Positions 1-10,190 of a stretch of DNA of 64,000 nt are shown piece by piece. The stretch is from Candidatus Melainabacteria bacterium 17Bon1m (GTDB lineage Bacteria > Cyanobacteriota > Vampirovibrionia > Obscuribacterales > Obscuribacteraceae). The position numbers were made by a program, and so were the translations under genes. Below the pieces are notes generated by a model. That model ran no database searches and was not told the DNA's origin. It saw nothing but the letters and a program-made list of their open reading frames with translations. Within the stretch, counting starts at the first letter, position 1. Each line of letters begins with the position of its first letter. The stretch covers positions 896,001 through 960,000 of the forward strand of contig JAVLKG010000002.1 of NCBI GenBank assembly GCA_032128875.1, in the 5' to 3' direction.

Positions 1-369
1 CGCGATGAATTCTTTCGACTCTGAGATAAAGCGCTGACGTTGCGGTTTTGCCAGCCAGAGAGCCAGAATGCGACGTCTGTCGGTGCCTTTCTTGAGGGTC
101 GGAGGACGATCGCCGAGAAGGCGTTCGCGAATCATGCGGTTGCCTTCGCGATAGTAGCAATCGCCGATTTGGCAGCCAGTAACAACAACACCGTCGGCAC
201 CAGCCTTGATGGCATTTTCAATCATCAGTGGTTGAATCATGCCTGAGCAAGGGAATTTGACTACTTTCATGCCGGGCACTTCAGTGCAGCTGCCTGAATC
301 GTCAACGATGCCGCTTAAGTCGCAGGCGCGTTCGCAGATAAGTGTGATTACTTTCTTAGCATCAGACAT
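1..369 (-). CDS. MvhD/FlpD-like (methyl-viologen-reducing hydrogenase delta subunit) [2Fe-2S] protein, 3' end runs off the window
   Basis: Not in ORF track. Manual translation from ATG at 369, 5 nt after the cyt b #2 stop: MSDAKKVITLICERAC...VVKFPCSGMIQPLMIENAIKAGADGVVVTGCQIGDCYYREGN...GTDRRRILALWLAKPQRQRFISESKEFIA. Matches the MvhD pattern C...PCSG...GADGVxVxGCxxGDCxYxxGN. Confidence 0.85.
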   Translation of the reverse strand, partial: MSDAKKVITLICERACDLSGIVDDSGSCTEVPGMKVVKFPCSGMIQPLMIENAIKAGADGVVVTGCQIGDCYYREGNRMIRERLLGDRPPTLKKGTDRRRILALWLAKPQRQRFISESKEFIA

Positions 370-374
370 TGGTG

Positions 375-1553
375 TTACCCTTTCGCCTCCAGAAGAGCCT
401 TAATCTTCGCGTTCACTTCCGCATCCGGAAGATCTGGCAAATCGATTGCATCAAACGCGCAAGCGCCGACGCATACGCCGCAGCCTGAGCAGCGGAAATC
501 TTTTACTGTCGCCAACAATTTGAATCTGGAACCAGCTGGTGCAGGCACCATTTCAATCGCTTGGTACGGGCAGTCTTTGTAGCAGAGTGAGCAGCCTGTG
601 CACTTGTTAAGCACAACTTCAGCTGTTTCGATCGCTGGTTGTTTCGGAATCATCAACCACGGTGCAGCCGTGATTGCGACGGTGCCGAGAATCATCACTG
701 CCCAGTAACCCATGACCGGCATTTGGCTGAGCATGGCGTATGGGAACAAGAAGAACCAGTCGATGTCGAACGATGTCGGCTGTTGGTTGAGGTCAGCCAT
801 GCTGCCACTGCTCAACGGCCAGATGAATACGCAGACGAGCACCAATGCGGTCAAAATGTAGTTCACTGCCGGTGGTGGCGTGAGTACTGGTCTGGTCATG
901 CGCAGGTAGTGAACCCACAGACCGAAGAGCAGGAAGAATGAAAGACCGATGTGGATGAAAAGGAAGTTGGAGAGAGTCAGGTTTGTAATCTGATCTCCGT
1001 TCAAGAACCAGGTCTTGAGTCCAGGTCCAATTACCGGCAGTGCTTCGAAAGCGCTGGCAGTCATTCTTGTGAGCAAGAGCGAGCGGTCATCCCAAACCAG
1101 GTAGAAACCGGTTTGACCAATGAAGAGTACGAAGATTGCCAGAACAATACCGGAAACCCATTGGAGCCAGCGGTATTGACGGTAGCGATCTGTGAACCAT
1201 ACGCGCAGAGCGTGCAGCAAGATGGTGATAACCATCGCGTCGCCTGCATAACGGTGGATACCGCGGATGACACCACCAAAAGGAAGAGACTTGGTGATGT
1301 AATCAACTGAGGTCCAAGCGTTGGTCAGAAGCTTCGAGTTGTAAGCGTTGTCGATGGTCGGGATGTAGTATGCGAAAAGCAGCAGCCCGGAGAGGTACAG
1401 CACCCACAGGTAGTACTGGGGAAGAGCTCCGTGATAGTAGAACGGATTGTATTTACTGGTCATGAACGCGTTGATTGCGTTTTCAATGGCCAGCGTCAAA
1501 CCGTTGAAGGCTTTTAGCGGGTGATTATCGACAATCTTTTGCACTGGGGTCAT
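375..1553 (-). CDS. Cytochrome b (#2) fused to a C-terminal 2x[4Fe-4S] ferredoxin domain
   Basis: RGIHRYAGDAMVITILLH (H100/H114) and FIHIGLSFFLLFGLWVH (H201/H215) give four heme ligands. IDWF at the PEWY position. C-terminal CTGCSLCYKDCP and CSGCGVCVGACA. Confidence 0.9.
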   Translation of the reverse strand: MTPVQKIVDNHPLKAFNGLTLAIENAINAFMTSKYNPFYYHGALPQYYLWVLYLSGLLLFAYYIPTIDNAYNSKLLTNAWTSVDYITKSLPFGGVIRGIHRYAGDAMVITILLHALRVWFTDRYRQYRWLQWVSGIVLAIFVLFIGQTGFYLVWDDRSLLLTRMTASAFEALPVIGPGLKTWFLNGDQITNLTLSNFLFIHIGLSFFLLFGLWVHYLRMTRPVLTPPPAVNYILTALVLVCVFIWPLSSGSMADLNQQPTSFDIDWFFLFPYAMLSQMPVMGYWAVMILGTVAITAAPWLMIPKQPAIETAEVVLNKCTGCSLCYKDCPYQAIEMVPAPAGSRFKLLATVKDFRCSGCGVCVGACAFDAIDLPDLPDAEVNAKIKALLEAKG

Positions 1554-1589: not shown

Positions 1590-1973
1590 CTATTTCTTTA
1601 CCGGTAAAACTGTCTTCTCTTCAGCATCTTCTCTGCCGATAATCATGATGGCGATACCGCCAATTGTCAGAGCTACCCCCATAAAGAGAATGTAGCCATA
1701 GTCTCCGAGGCTGGCAGTCGACTTCGGATTTACCGAGACGCCTTTGCCTTGCAAATACTTCGTCAAATCTTCACCCAAACTAGGTGTGAGTGAATTGAAG
1801 AAACCAGCGATTGCGCCGTGCAGACCAATTCGTGAGGTCAGGTCGGTCAGCCAGTCAGGTGTAGTTCCGGTAAAACCTAACTCAGACCATGCCATAAGAA
1901 CACTGACGGCGACAACGGCGCCGGCGAATGCCAGGAGTATGATGCCCTTCGGTGAAAGTATGTACTTAATCAC
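1590..1973 (-). CDS. Small membrane protein in the respiratory operon
   Basis: 127 aa with N- and C-terminal hydrophobic helices; co-oriented and tightly spaced within the operon. Confidence 0.7.
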   Translation of the reverse strand: MIKYILSPKGIILLAFAGAVVAVSVLMAWSELGFTGTTPDWLTDLTSRIGLHGAIAGFFNSLTPSLGEDLTKYLQGKGVSVNPKSTASLGDYGYILFMGVALTIGGIAIMIIGREDAEEKTVLPVKK

Positions 1974-1985
1974 TATGAATTCCTT

Positions 1986-2357
1986 TTACCTGGTTCCGTT
2001 TCGTTCTGCGAGTTTTGCTTCGATTTTGTCGAACAATTTGACCTTGCGTACCAACTTCCCTGTCGACTTTTCTTCGATGTAGATCCAGTAGCCTTGGACT
2101 GCTAGAAGCAGCATGGTTAGTGTGGTACCGAAGAAGAGATAGGCACAAGGAATGAGACCCGGCTCTTTTTGAACTTCACGCCAACCCTCGAAAAACCAGG
2201 AGAGCGTGATTACAGTCAGAGTGAAAGCGAACAGCCTTAAGGGCAGTTTGACTTTCGTGGGCTTGACCAGGGCTTTGGTTTCCACAGCCACGCTAGCATC
2301 ACCGGTGGTGACGTTAGTGTTGATTGCGCGTGGGTCCTTTTTCCCGGTCAAGATCAT
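1986..2357 (-). CDS. Small two-TM membrane protein in the respiratory operon
   Basis: Start moved to ATG 2357 (MILTGKKDP) to avoid overlap with cyt b #1. Two hydrophobic segments. Confidence 0.7.
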   Translation of the reverse strand: MILTGKKDPRAINTNVTTGDASVAVETKALVKPTKVKLPLRLFAFTLTVITLSWFFEGWREVQKEPGLIPCAYLFFGTTLTMLLLAVQGYWIYIEEKSTGKLVRKVKLFDKIEAKLAERNGTR

Positions 2358-2364
2358 TCCCCGA

Positions 2365-4155
2365 TTAAGTTGATGCAGATGCCGGTTGAGCAGGTGCTGG
2401 TTTAGGAGCAGCCTGAGCACCAGACTTGAAGTTCCATACCATGTAGGCGCCTACGACTGCAAAGACAGCTCCTGCAATCATCCATGTCCAATCCCAGAAA
2501 GGAATATCTAGGGGATAGAAAACGCCTTTGGTGGTCGTTTCGATGTTCGACGCGCGATTCATTCTGTCGCAGAAAACGACATAGTCGTAAGCCCAGCGGT
2601 TGGTGACCAGATAGTCAACCATGCCCAAGTATTTGGGGTGATCCGGTGTAAATGTCGGGATCCAATTAACGACCCAGTCTACTGGTGACGTCATCTTGCA
2701 ATGTTCAAGAATCTGGTTGAATGCTGCATGAACTTCCGGACCGCCTTTGGCCACATAGTTGTCCTTGAGCCAATCTTGCCAGTCATTCTTATATGTAGAT
2801 GCGAAATACGTGGAGGTTGGTTGAACCTTTCGCATAGCTGCTTCGAGCTTGTCCGCTTCCGGAAGGAATGGACGCATCACACCGTAGAACCACTGTTGGA
2901 ACATGGGTCCGCGGAACATTTCCACTTTCGCCATGTAGTAATAGACGAATCCCCAGAATGCTTGCGAAGCACCGATGACTGCTATTACAAGCGCACCCTT
3001 CCATTGTTTTGCACGTTGGACTGCGTCTTTGTTTTGCCACATGAGCCAGAGCTGCAGACCCATACCTACGTTGACTGTGAGGTATGTGAAGGCTCTCCAA
3101 TACGGAGGATCGGTGTGGATGTTGGCGATGTTAGCGATGATGAGCAGTGAGAATACGATCCAGCTCACGAGAGCCATGATCACTACCCAGAATATGAATG
3201 GTCTCTTGTTGATGTCTTTCTCTGCGCCGGTCAGCCAGACATCCATGAATGGCAAGCCGACAACGATTAGAGGCAACACAATAGTGATTTCTGTTGCTAC
3301 GACAGGCTCCAGGTATTTGTACATTTGGTACAAGCCAAGGAAGTACCAGTCAGACAAAATCGGAAGCGGTGTGACGTCCGGATCTGACCGTTTACCTTGC
3401 GCAGCAGGAAGAACTATAGCTACAACAACCAACATCAGGGTGATGATGGTGCGCTTTGCCCAGCTAAGTGGAACGCGCTTATAAGCGTTTTTGTAGAAGT
3501 AGAGTTCTACAAAGATCAAAGGAATGAGAGAGAAAGCGAGGTGGATAGAGAAGAATCGTGTGATTGTCTCCTGCGTGATAGCCGCTCCGCCGCCCAGGAG
3601 AACTTCGGCTGTATTCCATCCCATGTGAATCGACTTTACGAGCGGCTGATAGAAGTCGCCCATGACCGGGAATTGGTCCATGTAAGTCGGGAATGTCGCG
3701 AATACCTTTGTCGCCCAAAACGCGCGCTGGTTCCAGATCAATAGATATCCAGTCAGACCGGAATACATTGATAGCAGAAGCGCTACAAGAGCGATTGCAA
3801 TGTTGAACTCTTTACCCGGTTTGTAATCGGCACAGATGAACATGCGATACATGCGCATCGTCGCCGCAATGATCATGGCGTCGGCACCGTACTTGTGCAT
3901 GCCCCGCATGAGACCGCCGAAAGGAATACCGTTCTGAATGTGGAGAATAGAATCAAATGCCTGCGCTTTCGTAGGTACGTACCACATGATGAGTACGCAG
4001 CCTGTGAACATAACGAGGAACCAGACCATGTAGAAGATTGGCCCTAGAGAATACCAAGGGTTTGTCTTCGCTTCCTCGCGGTGATGCTCATCGAATATAT
4101 CGATGTTGTTGATCCGCGTCTTTACCCAGTCTATGGTTGCATTTACCGCTGACAT
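2365..4155 (-). CDS. Cytochrome b (#1) of a Rieske/cytb complex, lacking heme bH ligands, with a long C-terminal extension
   Basis: RGMHKYG (H87), GYLLIWNQRAFWATKV, RFFSIH (H205), SDWY at the PEWY position. The second His positions are R101 and Y219. Confidence 0.9.
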   Translation of the reverse strand: MSAVNATIDWVKTRINNIDIFDEHHREEAKTNPWYSLGPIFYMVWFLVMFTGCVLIMWYVPTKAQAFDSILHIQNGIPFGGLMRGMHKYGADAMIIAATMRMYRMFICADYKPGKEFNIAIALVALLLSMYSGLTGYLLIWNQRAFWATKVFATFPTYMDQFPVMGDFYQPLVKSIHMGWNTAEVLLGGGAAITQETITRFFSIHLAFSLIPLIFVELYFYKNAYKRVPLSWAKRTIITLMLVVVAIVLPAAQGKRSDPDVTPLPILSDWYFLGLYQMYKYLEPVVATEITIVLPLIVVGLPFMDVWLTGAEKDINKRPFIFWVVIMALVSWIVFSLLIIANIANIHTDPPYWRAFTYLTVNVGMGLQLWLMWQNKDAVQRAKQWKGALVIAVIGASQAFWGFVYYYMAKVEMFRGPMFQQWFYGVMRPFLPEADKLEAAMRKVQPTSTYFASTYKNDWQDWLKDNYVAKGGPEVHAAFNQILEHCKMTSPVDWVVNWIPTFTPDHPKYLGMVDYLVTNRWAYDYVVFCDRMNRASNIETTTKGVFYPLDIPFWDWTWMIAGAVFAVVGAYMVWNFKSGAQAAPKPAPAQPASAST

Positions 4156-4172
4156 GTTATCGATTGACTCCC

Positions 4173-4736
4173 TCAGGCGATTGAACCGGCTTCCAAACCA
4201 ACGATCTTATACGCATTGCCCTCTTTCTTGAGGTCAAACTTACGCGGCGGGCGCGGCGCAGGCCCAGAAACTACTTTGCCGTTTTGGGCAATGTCGTAAA
4301 CGCTCAAGTGGCAAGGGCATGCAAAAACGGGACCTTGTGGTTTGAAGTTGTAACCCTTGGCACATTCCGAAGGGTCTTTGACAAAGTTGAACACACAACC
4401 AAGGTGCGGGCAAATGCGGCTGTAGGCGACCACATCACCGGACGGCAATTTGACAATGAATCCGGGGATTTCGCGGACTTCTTTACCTTCAGGGTTGTAC
4501 TCGACATATTTCTGCTTGAACATGAAGTCAATGCATGTCCACTCTGACGGGAAGTCCGAATCGCTGAAGGAAACGTCTTCTTCAGGTCCGGGTTGATCGG
4601 AAGGTCCAAAAACGTCCAGAGGCTTCAGCGTTGGACGCATGTACCTCAGCAACGGCGATATGACCAGACCAAACGTGGCGGCGAGCGGAATAGCTGCCAG
4701 AGTCTTCAGAATAATTCTTCTATTTGTGCCTTCCAT
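4173..4736 (-). CDS. Rieske [2Fe-2S] subunit of cytochrome bc complex
   Basis: CPHLGC and CPCHLS boxes, GPAPRP, twin-arginine leader TNRRIILK. Start set at ATG 4736. Confidence 0.92.
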   Translation of the reverse strand: MEGTNRRIILKTLAAIPLAATFGLVISPLLRYMRPTLKPLDVFGPSDQPGPEEDVSFSDSDFPSEWTCIDFMFKQKYVEYNPEGKEVREIPGFIVKLPSGDVVAYSRICPHLGCVFNFVKDPSECAKGYNFKPQGPVFACPCHLSVYDIAQNGKVVSGPAPRPPRKFDLKKEGNAYKIVGLEAGSIA

Positions 4737-4749
4737 TTTTCGAACTCCG

Positions 4750-5688
4750 TTACTTTGTCTCGCCCTGAGGCTTAGCTTCTTCGGGTTTAGCATCAGCGGG
4801 TTTGTCTTCCGCCGGCTTAGCATCTTTGGTCTTGGCGCCTTCTTTGGTGTTATCGATTGGAGCGCCTACCGTTGGCGAGCCTATATTTGCCTCGGCGATT
4901 TGTTTGTTGGTTGAGTGGAATGCACGCACGTAGGCTACGAGCTTCCAAATATAAGCCTCATCGAATTTAACTTCTTTGGCTTTGTCCTCCTTGCCGAGGA
5001 AATTGGGCATCCCTTCCCACTTTATGCCATTTGCGATGTGATCCCATAGGATATCGTCGGTTCTGTCGTAAAAACGCTTATAGTTTTGGAAGTTGGCTGG
5101 GTTGGGCTCGAGTACGTTGTACTTGTTGAGCGGACCGTCGCCATAACCCTTAGGACCGTGACAGACTGCGCAATTCGCGCCGTATACAGGGGTGACTTTG
5201 GAGTATTCCTTCGCATCCAAAAGCGGTGCTGAGAGAGAGCGAACGTAATAAACAAGGTTCCAAGTCTTCTGGCTGGAGATGTCAGCCAAGGTCGTTGGGT
5301 GCTTGACGCCGTCTTTGCCGAATGCGAGGAACATATATTGATCGATCGGCTTTTGTTTGTGACCGTACTCAGGCGAGGTGAGGTCGATTGCCGATTTGCC
5401 GCTGACGCCTTTTCCGCCCGTGCCGTGGCACTCAGCGCAAGAAAGCTTTTCATAGACTACTTTGCCGTCCGGCTCGGATGGTTTGTCATCCGGGTAAATG
5501 GCCTCTCTTCCACCCTTGGTTACGTCTTTGGAAACCAGTTGTGAATCGTCACCTTTGACGGTGACTTGATTGCCGCATCCTGTAACTAGTGTCACCGCAG
5601 GTAACACCACTAGCAAAAGTGCCAGCAAGGATGTCGACAACCCGGCGAATGTTTCAAACGTAAAAACTGGTTTTTTGGAACGTGTCAT
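4750..5688 (-). CDS. Diheme cytochrome c, probable lipoprotein
   Basis: CAECH and CAVCH heme motifs, GMP axial Met in the second domain, lipobox-like VTG-C after a hydrophobic stretch. Confidence 0.85.
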   Translation of the reverse strand: MTRSKKPVFTFETFAGLSTSLLALLLVVLPAVTLVTGCGNQVTVKGDDSQLVSKDVTKGGREAIYPDDKPSEPDGKVVYEKLSCAECHGTGGKGVSGKSAIDLTSPEYGHKQKPIDQYMFLAFGKDGVKHPTTLADISSQKTWNLVYYVRSLSAPLLDAKEYSKVTPVYGANCAVCHGPKGYGDGPLNKYNVLEPNPANFQNYKRFYDRTDDILWDHIANGIKWEGMPNFLGKEDKAKEVKFDEAYIWKLVAYVRAFHSTNKQIAEANIGSPTVGAPIDNTKEGAKTKDAKPAEDKPADAKPEEAKPQGETK

Positions 5689-5695
5689 AACTCAC

Positions 5696-5941
5696 TCAGT
5701 AACCGAAGAAAGGAATCCAGGAGAACATTGCCCAAAGAACAATGAAGAAGAAGCACACAATGAGAAACAGGGGAGGCGGACCTTCACCAATACGGTATTC
5801 AGAAACTACTTCATAATGTTCATCTGCCGAGGGCGCGGCTGCGGCAGCTTTAGCAACTGCTGCGGGTTTGGCGGCAGGTTTTTCTTCAGCAGATTTCTCC
5901 GCCTTAACCTCGTCCCCGTTGTTTTTCACTTCTTCAGCCAT
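5696..5941 (-). CDS. Small single-TM protein resembling the CcoP N-terminal anchor
   Basis: EYRIGEGPPPLFLIVCFFFIVLWAMFSW resembles the CcoP ExDNPLPxW...IxWA helix; sits between ccoS and the cyt c gene. Confidence 0.55.
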   Translation of the reverse strand: MAEEVKNNGDEVKAEKSAEEKPAAKPAAVAKAAAAAPSADEHYEVVSEYRIGEGPPPLFLIVCFFFIVLWAMFSWIPFFGY

Positions 5942-5967
5942 TTCCTACCTCTTTGTGCGCAAATTTT

Positions 5968-6216
5968 TTACTTGTTGGCCGTCGATGCACTGAGCCTGAT
6001 CCTTTCAACTGCTGCCAGCGCTTTTTGGCCAGTAGTGTTGTCGTCGCCGTCGTCAAGCATGTCGAACTTTACGTCCTCCATGTTTTCAAACTCACCGTTT
6101 TTGAAGGCCCACAAAATTGCTGCAATAGCCATTACAAAAAACAGGATGCAAATGAAGAAGGCGACGTATATTCCCGAGCTCAGACCTTGCTGGTTGAGAA
6201 TGCAATTAGGACACAT
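5968..6216 (-). CDS. ccoS: cbb3-type oxidase assembly protein CcoS
   Basis: TM helix followed by LWAFKNGEFENMEDVKFDMLDD, matching the CcoS/FixS WAxxxGQFxD pattern. Confidence 0.8.
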   Translation of the reverse strand: MCPNCILNQQGLSSGIYVAFFICILFFVMAIAAILWAFKNGEFENMEDVKFDMLDDGDDNTTGQKALAAVERIRLSASTANK

Positions 6217-7295
6217 TAGTGGCCTCCTTCTTTTGTGGACGTGCCGCTGGTTGTGGTACCAGTACTGGTGCCTTCAGGAGATGAAGGTGTTGAAGGTTGC
6301 GGCATTTTGTGTTCGGATGGGCTCATGTTGTCACCTTCCGCCTGATGTCCGTGTCCGCCGTGGTGAGGTTCGTACTGCTGGTTAGACAACTTAGGCAGAT
6401 GGATATCTTCAACTTTGTTGATCTGACCGATACTGTTGATAGTTACCTCTTGGTCTTGAGGGATCGTCTTCAAGTATGCAACCAGGTACCAGCGTTGCTC
6501 TTCGGTAAGCGTTTCGGCCCAACGCGGCATCCGCGTTCCTACAATACCTTCTGAGATTCTGTAGAACCAGAATTCGTCGGAGTATTGCTTGTAGTATGGG
6601 CGGCTGAAATTTGGCGGTTTCTTTTCTAGAGAAAGTGAATTCGGACCTTCTCCGTAGCCGTTCAAACCGTGGCAAACAGCACAGTTCTGCGTATAAATAC
6701 CTCTGCCAGCATTAGCGTTGGCACTGGCATTGGTGTCAACTGTTTTACGGTTGTGCAATGCCACACCGGCTGGTGTAGTAGTTCTGTATTCGTCAGGAGC
6801 TTCGACGAATTCTTTCACCTGGCGACCGTTGCCCAAGCACTGTACATACGCGACCAGGTCGTTCATGTCCCGCTCGGACAGGTAGCTGAAGCTAGGCATG
6901 ATCGAGCCGGGTTTGACAGCGCGTGGTTGGATCAAGTGAGCTTTCTGCCACTCTGAAGCCATGCGTCCGCCTTCATTGGTCAAGTCCGGACCGGTACGGG
7001 CAGTGCCCAATTGGTGCGGTGTTTCCCAGATGAAGTCGCCCGCTTTGACGAGTGGACCATAACCTCTGTCTTGCAGACGGGTGAATTGAGTATGGCAATA
7101 GAAGCAGCCTTCCCTTACATATATTTTCCTTCCGCGAGCTGCATCTGCGACATTGGAAGCGACTTTGGTGTAGTCGTTGCTTCTGTGCTCTTTATCCGTT
7201 GGATTGAACAGCACCATCGGCAGAAGAACCGTGGAGAAAATGATGATGAAGAAAGTGGTGACGATACCGATTGCACCTAAACGATAGCTGTGCAT
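6216..7295 (-). CDS. ccoO: cbb3-type oxidase subunit II fused to a second cytochrome c domain
   Basis: GRKIYVREGCFYCHTQ, RTGPDL, PGSIMPSF (CcoO motifs); second heme CAVCH with RMP; His-rich tail. Confidence 0.9.
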   Translation of the reverse strand: MHSYRLGAIGIVTTFFIIIFSTVLLPMVLFNPTDKEHRSNDYTKVASNVADAARGRKIYVREGCFYCHTQFTRLQDRGYGPLVKAGDFIWETPHQLGTARTGPDLTNEGGRMASEWQKAHLIQPRAVKPGSIMPSFSYLSERDMNDLVAYVQCLGNGRQVKEFVEAPDEYRTTTPAGVALHNRKTVDTNASANANAGRGIYTQNCAVCHGLNGYGEGPNSLSLEKKPPNFSRPYYKQYSDEFWFYRISEGIVGTRMPRWAETLTEEQRWYLVAYLKTIPQDQEVTINSIGQINKVEDIHLPKLSNQQYEPHHGGHGHQAEGDNMSPSEHKMPQPSTPSSPEGTSTGTTTSGTSTKEGGH

Positions 7296-8701
7296 TACGC
7301 TTTCACCTCCGCTGCCTTAGCTGCAGGTGCAACTGATGCGGCAGGTTTTGTGTAAAGCGTCTTCCAGACGTTGTACGCAAACAGAAGTTGTCCCAAGACA
7401 ATCATGATTCCACTAATGCCTCTAAAGAACCAATAAGGTCTGATCTGCAATCCCCACTGATCGACAGGCATACCCATAGCCCAGCCAGCTGATTGAATCA
7501 AACCGGCAATGGTGAGCGATGTCATCATCAGGAGGAAGCCCAGGAATTTCAGCCAGTAGTGAGCGCGGATCAAACCTTGGCTGTAAAACTCTCTTCCGGT
7601 CAATTTCGGCAACGAATAATAAATTGCCGAAGTGAGGATAAAGGAGAAGGTTCCCAGAAGAGCAAGGTGGGCATGGCCTACAACCCATTGGGTGAAGTGT
7701 AAGTACCAGTTGACCCAGCGTGTCGCCTGGAACGGACCCTGTATGCAGGTGACCAGATAGAACATGCAGGATGTCACTGCAAAACGCAGTGGCAAATCGG
7801 TGACTGCCTGCCCCCAGCGACCCTTCATTGTCATGAAGAAGTTCGTCAATACGGTGAGTACAGGAACTAAAAGGAATATCGATGAAATGATTGCAATCGC
7901 TTTGAGCCATTCCGGTACAGGCGATTGGGTGATGTGGTGAGTACCGGTCGGAGCATAGAACAGAGCGATTCCCCAGAAACCCAACATTGACAAGCCATGG
8001 CTGTAGAGTGGCGCTTGGGTCAATCTGGGAAGCAGGTAATACATCATGCCTACGCCGACTGTGGTGAACCACATGCCCAGAATGTTGTGTCCGTAGAACC
8101 AACCGACGATCGCGTCGTTGAGCCCGGGCAAGGCAACGAAAGTTCTCTGTCCGATGATCCACACTAGCGGGAACCAGAACAGAGAACCGAGGAAATACCA
8201 GAGAGTCACATACAGTTTTTTGACTCTTCTGTTGAGGATGGTCATGTAGATGTTCAGCGCTACAGACACCAGAGCGACTGCTACGAGTACGTCGAGGATC
8301 GCTCCGAGTTCCGCATATTCCCGACCTTCGGTGTTGCCATTGAGCAGAGTGCAGAAGGCGGCGACAATCACCAGGTTCCAGGCCCACATGGTCATGTTCC
8401 CGAGCCTCTCTGACCAAAGCTTGGTCTTACAGAGATTTGGAACCATGTAGAAGATGGAGCCTACATATCCCATCGATAGCCAACCTACCGCTACAGCGTT
8501 GACGTGGAACATTCGCATATGCGGAAATGCCAACTGCGGCACGTTTTTAACCAGGTCGGGCATGGAAAACTCCAACCCGCCGATCATTCCTGCCCCCATG
8601 CCCCACAGTGACCACCACAGAGCGGATAGGAAGAAATTACGACTGGCGCTGCCCTCTTTATTGCTGAAAAGCTTGTCTGCAACAGAACTCAACTTGGACA
8701 C
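7295..8701 (-). CDS. ccoN: C-family (cbb3) heme-copper oxidase subunit I
   Basis: MRMFHVNAV, WFYGHNILG, FYAPTGTHH, WVVGHAH, GREYAE; about 12 TM helices. Confidence 0.93.
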   Translation of the reverse strand: MSKLSSVADKLFSNKEGSASRNFFLSALWWSLWGMGAGMIGGLEFSMPDLVKNVPQLAFPHMRMFHVNAVAVGWLSMGYVGSIFYMVPNLCKTKLWSERLGNMTMWAWNLVIVAAFCTLLNGNTEGREYAELGAILDVLVAVALVSVALNIYMTILNRRVKKLYVTLWYFLGSLFWFPLVWIIGQRTFVALPGLNDAIVGWFYGHNILGMWFTTVGVGMMYYLLPRLTQAPLYSHGLSMLGFWGIALFYAPTGTHHITQSPVPEWLKAIAIISSIFLLVPVLTVLTNFFMTMKGRWGQAVTDLPLRFAVTSCMFYLVTCIQGPFQATRWVNWYLHFTQWVVGHAHLALLGTFSFILTSAIYYSLPKLTGREFYSQGLIRAHYWLKFLGFLLMMTSLTIAGLIQSAGWAMGMPVDQWGLQIRPYWFFRGISGIMIVLGQLLFAYNVWKTLYTKPAASVAPAAKAAEVKA

Positions 8702-9171: not shown

Positions 9172-9924
9172 TTAGGCGCCGCCTGATTGTTTTTCCGTCT
9201 TGAAGTTTTCTTCCTTGATTCTTTCTTTTTCCAGCCGCTCGGCTTCGAGCTTTTCTTTGCGCGCTTGAGCCGCCTGCTCTTTTTTGCGTTTCTTTTCCTC
9301 TGCTTCGGCAATAGCTTCCGGGCGCAGATCAATAGAGTTGTACTGGTTCATCGCTTTTAGCGTGCCTTCGTTTATCCAGGTAAACAAGCACTTCTTCGCA
9401 AGGTCTTGAGTTTGAGCAAGCAAATCTTGCTGCGCCTCTGGAATCCGGGAAAGTACAAACGAAGCGCGTTTGTCGCCGCCAGGATCGGGACCTACACCGA
9501 ATTTCAAACGAACTATCGATGTGTCTCCTCCCAGGCATTGAATTATGGATTCGACTCCATGCTGCCCCCCGGCACCCCCTCCGTTCTGCACCCGGAGTTT
9601 GCCAAGCGGCAAGGCGACGTCGTCATGGACGACTATGAAAGAGGAAACCGGCAGTTTGAACCATTGCTTAACCGCTACCAGACATTCTCCAGACAGGTTC
9701 ATATATGTCATGGGTTTGACCAGCATTATCGTTTTGCCGCGGTAGGAAAACTTCGAAAAGTCGCATTTCAGGCGGCTGTTGCTGGCGGGCTCCGCACCAT
9801 TTGCAGTACCAATGGCATCTACAACCATGAATCCCATGTTATGACGGGTACGCGCGTATTCTGCACCTGGGTTGCCGAGCCCCACAATCACTCTGGTTTC
9901 GTTGTCGTTATTTTGGTCAGCCAT
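9172..9924 (-). CDS. pth: Peptidyl-tRNA hydrolase with charged C-terminal tail
   Basis: VGLGNPGAEYARTRHNMGF, KPMTYMNLSG, VVHDD, GGQHG. Start set at ATG 9924. Confidence 0.93.
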   Translation of the reverse strand: MADQNNDNETRVIVGLGNPGAEYARTRHNMGFMVVDAIGTANGAEPASNSRLKCDFSKFSYRGKTIMLVKPMTYMNLSGECLVAVKQWFKLPVSSFIVVHDDVALPLGKLRVQNGGGAGGQHGVESIIQCLGGDTSIVRLKFGVGPDPGGDKRASFVLSRIPEAQQDLLAQTQDLAKKCLFTWINEGTLKAMNQYNSIDLRPEAIAEAEEKKRKKEQAAQARKEKLEAERLEKERIKEENFKTEKQSGGA

Positions 9925-10190
9925 CTTTAATCTGTGTAATGCATTGCTTTTGAAATTCACTGTTGCCGCCTCTATTTGCACGGACGGACGGCCGGGCACC
10001 CGGGCTTATGAGAAACAATATTAATAGATAGAACGCACTTCAAGTTTGGGCAACGTTTAAACTATAAAATTGTTTGGCGCACACACGTTATTGCGCTATT
10101 TAGACAGCGTTCTTCAATGCGCGCGGTTCCAGCAATAACCTATTACGTGCTTGAAAACAATCACTCCCACTCAGACATAGAGTTAAAGGC

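Follow-up and report, generated by a model that had tools for sequence, protein, structure and literature searches.

An MvhD-like iron-sulfur protein behind a ferredoxin-fused cytochrome b: a predicted cytoplasmic arm on a two-cytochrome-b Rieske complex in Obscuribacteraceae

The stretch of Candidatus Melainabacteria bacterium 17Bon1m DNA analysed here (the window; 64,000 nucleotides of contig JAVLKG010000002.1, G000:C2:896001-960000 in our genome numbering) begins with a minus-strand gene for a small MvhD-like [2Fe-2S] protein. The gene directly follows that of a cytochrome b with a C-terminal ferredoxin domain (cytochrome b2) and closes a respiratory operon that also encodes a Rieske protein, a second cytochrome b (cytochrome b1) and a probable cbb3-type oxidase (Table 1). 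Our reading is that the MvhD-like protein ends a three-cluster cytoplasmic iron-sulfur arm of a two-cytochrome-b Rieske complex, and we give this reading as a whole a probability of about 0.5. In this arm the C-terminal domain of cytochrome b2 would hold two [4Fe-4S] clusters, and the MvhD-like protein, as the last subunit, would add a [2Fe-2S] cluster.

The small protein is a member of the MvhD/FlpD family. Its reading frame (369..1) leaves the window at the left end after 123 of its 134 codons, and the complete gene occupies G000:C2:895965-896369 on the minus strand. The ATG (369-367) lies 5 nucleotides past the TAA (377-375) of the 392-residue cytochrome b2-ferredoxin gene, as an earlier reading of the letters and their open reading frames (ORFs), here called the sequence-only reading, had noticed. 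Against Pfam FlpD (PF02662) the translated protein scored 67.3 bits (E 1.6e-18; cut-off 22.3) over profile positions 5-116 of 123, and it scored 70.9 bits in a Pfam scan of the whole genome; the match is far above chance level. Sequence comparison with solved chains returned 5odc_D (E 7.9e-16) and five further MvhD/VhuD chains. The AlphaFold2 model, with a predicted local distance difference test score (pLDDT) of 80.3, matched only MvhD chains in the PDB at E<=1e-3, namely 5odc_D, 8rvu_F, 5odh_D and 7bkb_F, with template modelling (TM) scores of 0.59-0.67. The family assignment made in the sequence-only reading is thus borne out by profile, by solved chains and by fold.

The motifs on which that assignment had drawn (ICER, PCSG and GCQIGDC) are present and hold four cysteines, C12, C41, C66 and C71, that are invariant in all 14 aligned orthologues; C16 and C28 vary. 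The locus L035 is full of frameshifts and was excluded from these alignments. The same four-cysteine pattern occurs in 69 of 71 metagenome copies, with the first position falling outside the alignment in the other two. The four residues align with cysteines of the solved MvhD chains and are candidate ligands of a [2Fe-2S] cluster. Homologues in the NCBI and JGI collections carry the name 'hydrogenase iron-sulfur subunit' and organism names of Obscuribacterales or Melainabacteria. The likeness to MvhD, VhuD and the MvhD domain of HdrA2 covers sequence family, predicted fold, aligned cysteines and the place after a 2x[4Fe-4S] domain; the window protein differs from solved MvhD in that only four cysteines are conserved and in that most orthologues lack the N-terminal motif's second cysteine. 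A search for longer proteins from the MvhD query found only forms of 236-352 residues with low-complexity tails and no cytochrome b fusion; fused proteins came up only in the search that started from cytochrome b.

The protein encoded upstream, cytochrome b2, matches Pfam Cytochrome_B (E 6e-23) and Fer4_7 (E 4.6e-9), and its four haem histidines (H100, H114, H201 and H215) and eight cysteines are invariant in 14/14 orthologues. Its AlphaFold2 model contains six long helices at a mean pLDDT of 66, with ferredoxin residues 306-379 below 50, and the membrane part matches cytochrome b chains of bc1 complexes at TM ~0.55. Six helices would place the ferredoxin domain on the same side as the N-terminus, and by analogy with bc1 topology this side is predicted to be the cytoplasm. 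The best single-stretch PDB matches of the ferredoxin domain include C-terminal ferredoxin domains of HdrA (9sfi_A, 7.4e-11). On the NCBIfam HdrA2 model the ferredoxin domain aligns to positions 571-644 and the MvhD-like protein to positions 650-774. Judged from these alignments, the two correspond, one after the other, to the ferredoxin-MvhD part at the C-terminus of HdrA2. The sequence-only reading had recognised such an HdrA-type module, within a span (1-640) that also takes in the ferredoxin domain, and had placed the MvhD-like gene behind a ferredoxin-fused cytochrome b in an aerobic respiratory operon; the collinear alignment and the Pfam matches, which show a 2x[4Fe-4S] domain and a cbb3-type oxidase, agree with both points.

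The quinol-oxidation motif of cytochrome b2 is relaxed, reading IDWF in the window protein and xDWF in 10/14 orthologues, with the tryptophan replaced in 3/14. A separate feature of this protein is a Tyr-Tyr-His sequence before the first helix (residues 39-41, window 1431-1439, minus strand). It is invariant in the 14 split-form orthologues and present in the consensus of 7 unfused representatives, while the fused family has leucine in place of the histidine. The motif lies on the cytoplasmic side, near the expected meeting place of the inner haem and the ferredoxin domain.

The link between the two proteins is covalent in most relatives. A search with the b2-ferredoxin protein through 1.84 billion representative proteins gave 4194 matches at E<=1e-3, of which 301 were at E<=1e-30. 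Among the best 150 representatives below its own cluster (28-46% identity), 120 carry an MvhD-like domain straight after the ferredoxin domain, as detected with our own MvhD hidden Markov model (HMM; sequence E<=1e-3), and Pfam FlpD was present in 7 of 10 sampled representatives. Because the two are covalently fused in so many relatives, the comparison is strong evidence that MvhD and the b2-ferredoxin protein work as one unit, and it is highly probable that in the window, too, the MvhD-like protein binds to the ferredoxin domain as a subunit.

The fused architecture has been catalogued before. Kao and Hunte (2014; PMC4122944) named a 'PDWF-FeS clade' of cytochrome b with 4Fe-4S and MvhD domains, and they state that the gene cluster of the clade contains no Rieske protein. 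The window's cytochrome b2 and MvhD-like protein share with this clade the cytochrome b and ferredoxin homology, the domain order, an xDWF-type motif and all haem and cluster ligands. They differ from it in that MvhD is a separate gene, 5 nucleotides apart, and in that the split forms group apart in a tree. This tree (108 rows; quick IQ-TREE search, LG+G4) was rooted on cytochrome b1, which forms a long branch. In it a branch with 97% support in the Shimodaira-Hasegawa-like approximate likelihood ratio test (SH-aLRT) separates the 14 Vampirovibrionia proteins, together with 13 unfused representatives, from 80 rows that comprise all 73 fused proteins and 7 without a detected MvhD domain. The sequence-only reading had pictured the ferredoxin-MvhD module as a graft onto an aerobic respiratory operon; this has to be revised, as the arrangement is not lineage-specific and belongs, as the split form, to a very large cytochrome b-FeS-MvhD family that has already been catalogued.

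The fused proteins come in two sizes, ~500 residues and 650-770 residues. The longer forms add one membrane helix and a C-terminal domain of ~150 residues without a Pfam match (P0147 residues 510-695, for example), for which an outer location is predicted and which has conserved Cys, Asp-Gly and Pro-Gly-x-His positions; the window's cytochrome b2 has neither the extra helix nor this domain. One representative, P0175, is a fusion of SCO1, cytochrome b and ferredoxin. Seven long representatives in which MvhD was not detected were scanned for other domains and, a single partial Pyr_redox_dim match aside, showed none of the flavin or NAD kind.

The split form is itself conserved as part of a larger cassette. 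Of 41 genomes searched, the window genome (G000) counted, 27 gave a match to the MvhD-like protein: 19 of 24 in its own family, 3/3, 3/3 and 1/2 in further families, and 0/8 in four others. A wider sample of the phylum yielded it in 4 of 300 other genomes, two of the same class and two weak matches (E ~1e-6) elsewhere. All 15 relatives' loci examined, from four families of the class, show one and the same gene order: ccoN, ccoO/P, small proteins, cytochrome c, Rieske, b1, b2-ferredoxin and MvhD. A metagenome scan seeded with unfused representatives returned 80 further loci, and MvhD stands directly after b2-ferredoxin in 71 of them; eight of the nine misses are cut by a contig end and one (L163) is interrupted. 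The approximate spacer in the 71 loci has a median of 21 nucleotides (range -38 to 99). Where at least 3 kb of upstream sequence was present (44 loci), a Rieske gene and a b1-type cytochrome b gene lie upstream in 41 and a ccoN-like gene in only 16. By these counts the conserved unit is the cassette of Rieske, b1, two small membrane proteins, b2-ferredoxin and MvhD, and the cbb3-type oxidase is a frequent, not an obligatory, companion. Of the linkage expected in the sequence-only reading, the part joining cytochrome b, 4Fe-4S domain and MvhD stands, while the part joining them to ccoN does not hold generally.

The distant locus L187 shows the same arrangement, with cytochrome c maturation genes, cytochrome c, a Rieske-like gene, cytochrome b, two small ORFs, cytochrome b-ferredoxin, FlpD (E 2.8e-28 for its MvhD gene) and a cupredoxin gene in this order. 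Downstream of MvhD nothing is conserved across families in 14 relatives' loci and the window's own, and no consistent redox gene follows MvhD in the distant loci, where a cupredoxin, COX1 with FixO, and a polyprenyl synthetase take turns.

MvhD has an established role as an electron adaptor between modules (PMC6019823). The window protein could be an ordinary MvhD of a hydrogenase or heterodisulfide reductase (Hdr) system that merely adjoins a respiratory operon. Its family name and source annotation, 'hydrogenase iron-sulfur subunit', would fit, as would the presence of one [NiFe] hydrogenase cluster in the genome. This cluster, the only one of its type found, is a four-subunit NAD(P)-type hydrogenase with an NAD-binding subunit; it lies on another contig (C1) and has no MvhD gene beside it. 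The MvhD-like gene is the one FlpD gene in the entire genome. No [FeFe] hydrogenase was found in the genome, which is 93% complete, and neither was an MvhAG-type hydrogenase or HdrABC; no Hdr was found, the sole CCG-domain protein being GlcF-like and adjoining a FAD_binding_4 gene. In the Mvh/Fdh-Hdr systems the module upstream of MvhD is the HdrA flavoprotein, whereas here it is a membrane cytochrome b, in an oxygen-respiring operon of a genome without Hdr or Mvh-type hydrogenase. The linkage to b2-ferredoxin in 15/15 and 71/80 loci and the covalent fusion in 120 of the best 150 relatives already contradict such a hydrogenase MvhD, which we regard as scarcely credible.

The hydrogenase cluster itself (G000:C1:438900-445100) consists of genes for a maturation protease, HypA and a HypB-like protein, followed by four structural genes for a Fer4_22 protein, an NAD-binding/DHODB iron-sulfur protein, a small subunit and a 441-residue [NiFe] large subunit. 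It resembles a cytosolic NAD(P)-linked hydrogenase.

The second cytochrome b of the cassette provides a mechanistic reason for the arm, in a loss of haem ligands that the sequence-only reading had not noticed. Four histidines are needed for the two b haems of bc1 and b6f complexes, and the second histidine of each helix is, we take it from the bc1 structure, the ligand of the inner (n-side) haem. Cytochrome b2 has all four (HHHH), and cytochrome b1 reads H-R-H-Y, keeping both histidines of the p-side haem and having arginine and tyrosine in place of those of the n-side haem. In its orthologues, distant lineages included, the helix-B n-side histidine is arginine or lysine in 62/62 rows and the helix-D histidine is tyrosine, phenylalanine, leucine or methionine in 61/62, so that both are gone in 61 of the 62. 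The quinol-oxidation motif SDWY of b1 is present in 62/62 rows. A PEWY-type motif in cytochrome b and the Rieske boxes, as in bc1 and b6f complexes, are thus both found in the cassette. Since b1 lacks ligands for an n-side haem, electrons probably pass between the b haems and the cytoplasm along the three-cluster arm of b2.

In the proposed heterodimer, b1 would supply the quinol-oxidation site and an outer (p-side) haem only, and b2 both haems and the iron-sulfur arm. Quinol would be oxidised at b1 together with the Rieske protein, and the first electron would pass through the Rieske protein and the di-haem cytochrome c to the cbb3-type oxidase. The second electron would move from the single b1 haem, there being no inner haem in b1, to the haems of b2. 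From there it could leave by way of the ferredoxin domain and the MvhD cluster and reduce a soluble carrier in the cytoplasm. Candidate acceptors would be ferredoxin, flavodoxin or an NAD(P)-linked flavoprotein encoded elsewhere, and MvhD may act as the docking point for such a partner, as the sequence-only reading had suggested. We tentatively favour this outward flow, from membrane to cytoplasm, over the reverse. A more ambitious proposal is a new complex III in which a mono-haem and a di-haem cytochrome b form an obligate heterodimer and bifurcate quinol electrons: the high-potential electron would go by Rieske and cytochrome c to a cbb3 oxidase, and the low-potential one would be driven across the membrane and through the three clusters to reduce ferredoxin or NAD(P)+ in the cytoplasm. 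This seems to us unlikely.

The arm could also work as an electron inlet, in the manner of a dehydrogenase. Reduced ferredoxin, or NAD(P)H by way of a flavoprotein, would then deliver electrons to MvhD, the ferredoxin domain and the b2 haems, from which they would pass on to quinone or across the membrane to Rieske, cytochrome c and oxidase. Transfer from low-potential clusters to haems runs downhill and is aided by the membrane potential. The fused relatives offer further grounds for this direction. In 79 loci with the fused gene from named genomes, including Deltaproteobacteria, Nitrospirota, Nitrospinota and many Alpha- and Gammaproteobacteria, no window-type Rieske or ccoN gene was found nearby. 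In the 71 of these loci with a usable fused ORF, to which the following counts refer, the neighbours include a COX1-family gene of ~568 residues (46/71), ORFs of ~290 residues (56/71), for example a UbiA-type haem O synthase-like protein and SCO1/SenC, a 181-residue protein (33/71) and a hemerythrin (27/71). The relatives sit in operons of nitric oxide (NO)-reductase-type haem-copper enzymes, accompanied by haem O synthase-like and SCO1 genes and working without Rieske. Their gene order matches the eNOR operon described for Ferrigenium straubiae, which contains two cytochrome b-[Fe-S] genes according to the 2026 preprint (10.64898/2026.01.22.701106), the neighbouring enzyme being likened to eNOR by gene order only. 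A link to the 'norSY-senC-orf1' sNOR cluster of ammonia oxidisers was dropped for the eNOR operon, as the papers, in the portions accessible, list the cluster and leave orf1 undescribed (PMC4940428), and a locus-tag search was empty.

NAD(P)H-type modules among the relatives would suit an inlet as well. At the locus L057, in a metagenome-assembled genome of Nitrospiria, a NuoF-like gene (Complex1_51K, NADH_4Fe-4S) lies at 5053-6363 on the plus strand between two tandem fused copies. Kao and Hunte (PMC4122944) note a fusion of ferredoxin and flavin oxidoreductase, and the preprint describes a cytochrome b-[Fe-S]-FAD-NADH protein (10.64898/2026.01.22.701106). These modules make NAD(P) one possible partner of the arm. 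The preprint's authors read the NADH-linked form as a quinol:NAD+ oxidoreductase (10.64898/2026.01.22.701106), which is the direction opposite to an inlet. An inlet would also leave the loss of the inner haem in 61/62 rows of the quinol-oxidising b1 unexplained, a loss that leaves the second quinol electron no outlet other than b2, and no donor gene is linked at the locus or conserved downstream in relatives. We consider an inlet possible, though doubtful.

It is improbable, in our view, that the arm is no conduit to a soluble partner at all and serves as a redox or oxygen sensor, as an electron buffer against semiquinone side reactions or as a helper in haem-copper assembly. That no partner gene is conserved would be in keeping with such a role, as would the maturation genes (SCO1/SenC and UbiA-type haem O synthase) adjoining the fused relatives and the SCO1 fusion in P0175. 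All twelve cluster cysteines and all four haem histidines, however, are strictly conserved even between distant lineages, which fits a working electron chain, and the split cassette often occurs without a nearby oxidase, a ccoN-like gene being present in 16 of 44 loci.

Several points weigh against the arm as an electron exit of a two-cytochrome-b Rieske complex. No gene for a cytoplasmic partner is linked to MvhD, be it left of the window, downstream in relatives or in the distant loci. Passing an electron from the b haems to low-potential clusters that face the negative side of the membrane carries a high energetic cost. Cytochrome b2 could have a quinone-reduction site of its own, and the arm would then be a side branch. 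The fused relatives work without Rieske, and therefore the core job of the family needs no quinol bifurcation. The ferredoxin domain is poorly modelled (pLDDT <50), and the complex, the binding of MvhD and the pairing of b1 with b2 are predictions from sequences and models. The root of the tree is unsure, and because the outgroup branch is long, the tree gives no time order for the split and the fused form.

If the arm carries the second quinol electron, the quinone pool would be linked directly to cytoplasmic redox carriers. Complex III, among the best understood of bioenergetic machines, is usually taken to be a symmetric dimer in which the low-potential electrons go back to the quinone pool. 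Were bifurcation to hold, oxygen respiration in non-photosynthetic sisters of the cyanobacteria would directly make low-potential reductant. A direct link from the quinone pool to cytoplasmic carriers in the closest non-photosynthetic relatives of cyanobacteria would bear on the evolution of b6f-type complexes and of aerobic respiration. MvhD would gain a working context outside anaerobic flavin-based bifurcation, and the split form is tied to a large cytochrome b-FeS-MvhD family that accompanies NO-reductase-type enzymes.

Other membrane complexes offer partial parallels. In QmoABC a membrane b-type cytochrome is wired to cytoplasmic iron-sulfur and flavin modules and QmoB has an MvhD-like domain; QmoC is a NarI/HdrE-type cytochrome b and not of the bc type. 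The Rieske/cytochrome b complexes of anammox bacteria have flavoprotein subunits of the NAD(P)-oxidoreductase type instead of MvhD, and quinol-based bifurcation towards NAD(P)+ has been proposed for them and is not known to have been shown. We know of no pairing of a mono-haem with a di-haem cytochrome b in either. With respect to the PDWF-FeS clade, which lacks Rieske and is linked to eNOR, the window cassette differs by its Rieske gene (15/15 relatives, 41/44 metagenome loci), its mono-haem b1 and its cbb3-type oxidase.

For Melainabacteria/Vampirovibrionia, Soo et al. reported in 2017 a 'complex III-IV operon' that contains two cytochrome b genes, as cited in bioRxiv 10.1101/531145; the citing sentence makes no mention of a ferredoxin fusion, an MvhD gene or missing haem ligands. 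This operon and the fused architecture (2014) are already known. Outside the supplements of Soo et al. and of Kao and Hunte, our literature search found no paper on the separate MvhD gene, its Rieske cassette or the mono-haem cytochrome b.

Table 1. Features of the operon and of the MvhD-like gene at its end (window positions unless a contig is named; aa, amino acids).
Feature	Position	Strand	Basis or remark
MvhD-like gene end, last 11 codons and stop, outside the window	G000:C2:895965-896000	-	ends 35 nt left of window
MvhD/FlpD-like [2Fe-2S] protein gene, codons 1-123 of 134	1..369	-	ORF, Pfam, PDB matches, invariant Cys
Spacer from cytochrome b2-ferredoxin stop to MvhD start, 5 nt	370..374	-	ORF coordinates
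Cytochrome b2, di-haem, six predicted membrane helices, C-terminal 2x[4Fe-4S] ferredoxin, 392 aa	375..1553	-	Pfam, ligands, AlphaFold2
Ferredoxin domain of cytochrome b2, residues ~310-392, predicted cytoplasmic	~378..626	-	after sixth helix; HdrA matches
Small membrane protein, 127 aa, conserved in cassette	1590..1973	-	no Pfam match
Small membrane protein, up to 144 aa	1986..2420	-	no family match; true start probably later (overlaps b1 end)
Cytochrome b1, 596 aa, long C-terminal extension	2365..4155	-	Pfam Cytochrome_B 6.2e-22; ligand pattern H-R-H-Y
Rieske [2Fe-2S] protein	4173..4823	-	Pfam Rieske 7.3e-10; CPHLGC and CPCH boxes
Di-haem cytochrome c	4750..5688	-	Pfam Cytochrome_CBB3 and Cytochrom_C, two stretches each
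Small conserved membrane protein, 81 aa	5696..5941	-	ORF, relatives
FixS/CcoS-like protein	5968..6216	-	Pfam FixS 1.1e-6
CcoO fused to c-type cytochrome domains (CcoO/P-like)	6216..7295	-	Pfam FixO 9.4e-31, Cytochrom_C 2.5e-20
Haem-copper oxidase subunit I, cbb3 (C-family) type	7295..8701	-	Pfam COX1 4.1e-80

MvhD is the last gene of the operon, and no gene for a partner adjoins it. The hydrogenase or FAD/NAD oxidoreductase that the sequence-only reading had proposed to look for left of the window is absent there; the genes found encode a tetratricopeptide repeat (TPR) protein, a two-component system (response regulator and histidine kinase) and a glycogen debranching-type enzyme. Co-transcription of MvhD with the operon is suggested by the 5-nucleotide spacer and the comparative data; a promoter and terminator scan around the MvhD gene gave counts near the shuffled expectation. 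In four runs filed as RNA-Seq the region lies on near-identical single contigs of 19-65 kb with flat depth. These contigs look like genomic DNA and may be the assembly source, and they are neutral on co-transcription.

For oxidase subunit I the best single-function model was NCBIfam ccoN (TIGR00780), at 284 bits and below its cut-off of 583, and the ccoO model likewise scored below its cut-off (97 vs 201 bits). In its longest form the Rieske ORF shares 74 nucleotides (4750-4823) with the end of the cytochrome c gene. The real start is probably Met30 (nucleotide 4736), just ahead of a twin-arginine motif, and the Rieske hits in relatives begin at residues 5-35, mostly 26-35.

Cytochrome b1 carries a C-terminal extension of ~230 residues (residues ~366-596, window 2365-3060, minus strand) without a family match. 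The extension is matched only in the two closest families, where hits reach residues 579-596, and in more distant members of the class and the metagenome lineages b1 ends near residue 365-390. The two small membrane proteins encoded between the cytochrome b genes are probably extra subunits of the complex. For the 127-residue protein, tblastn gave hits in 11 of the 15 relatives' loci (none in L026-L029) and in 23 of the 80 metagenome loci. At L187 two small ORFs (9366-10009) occupy the same place between the cytochrome b genes as window positions 1590-2420.

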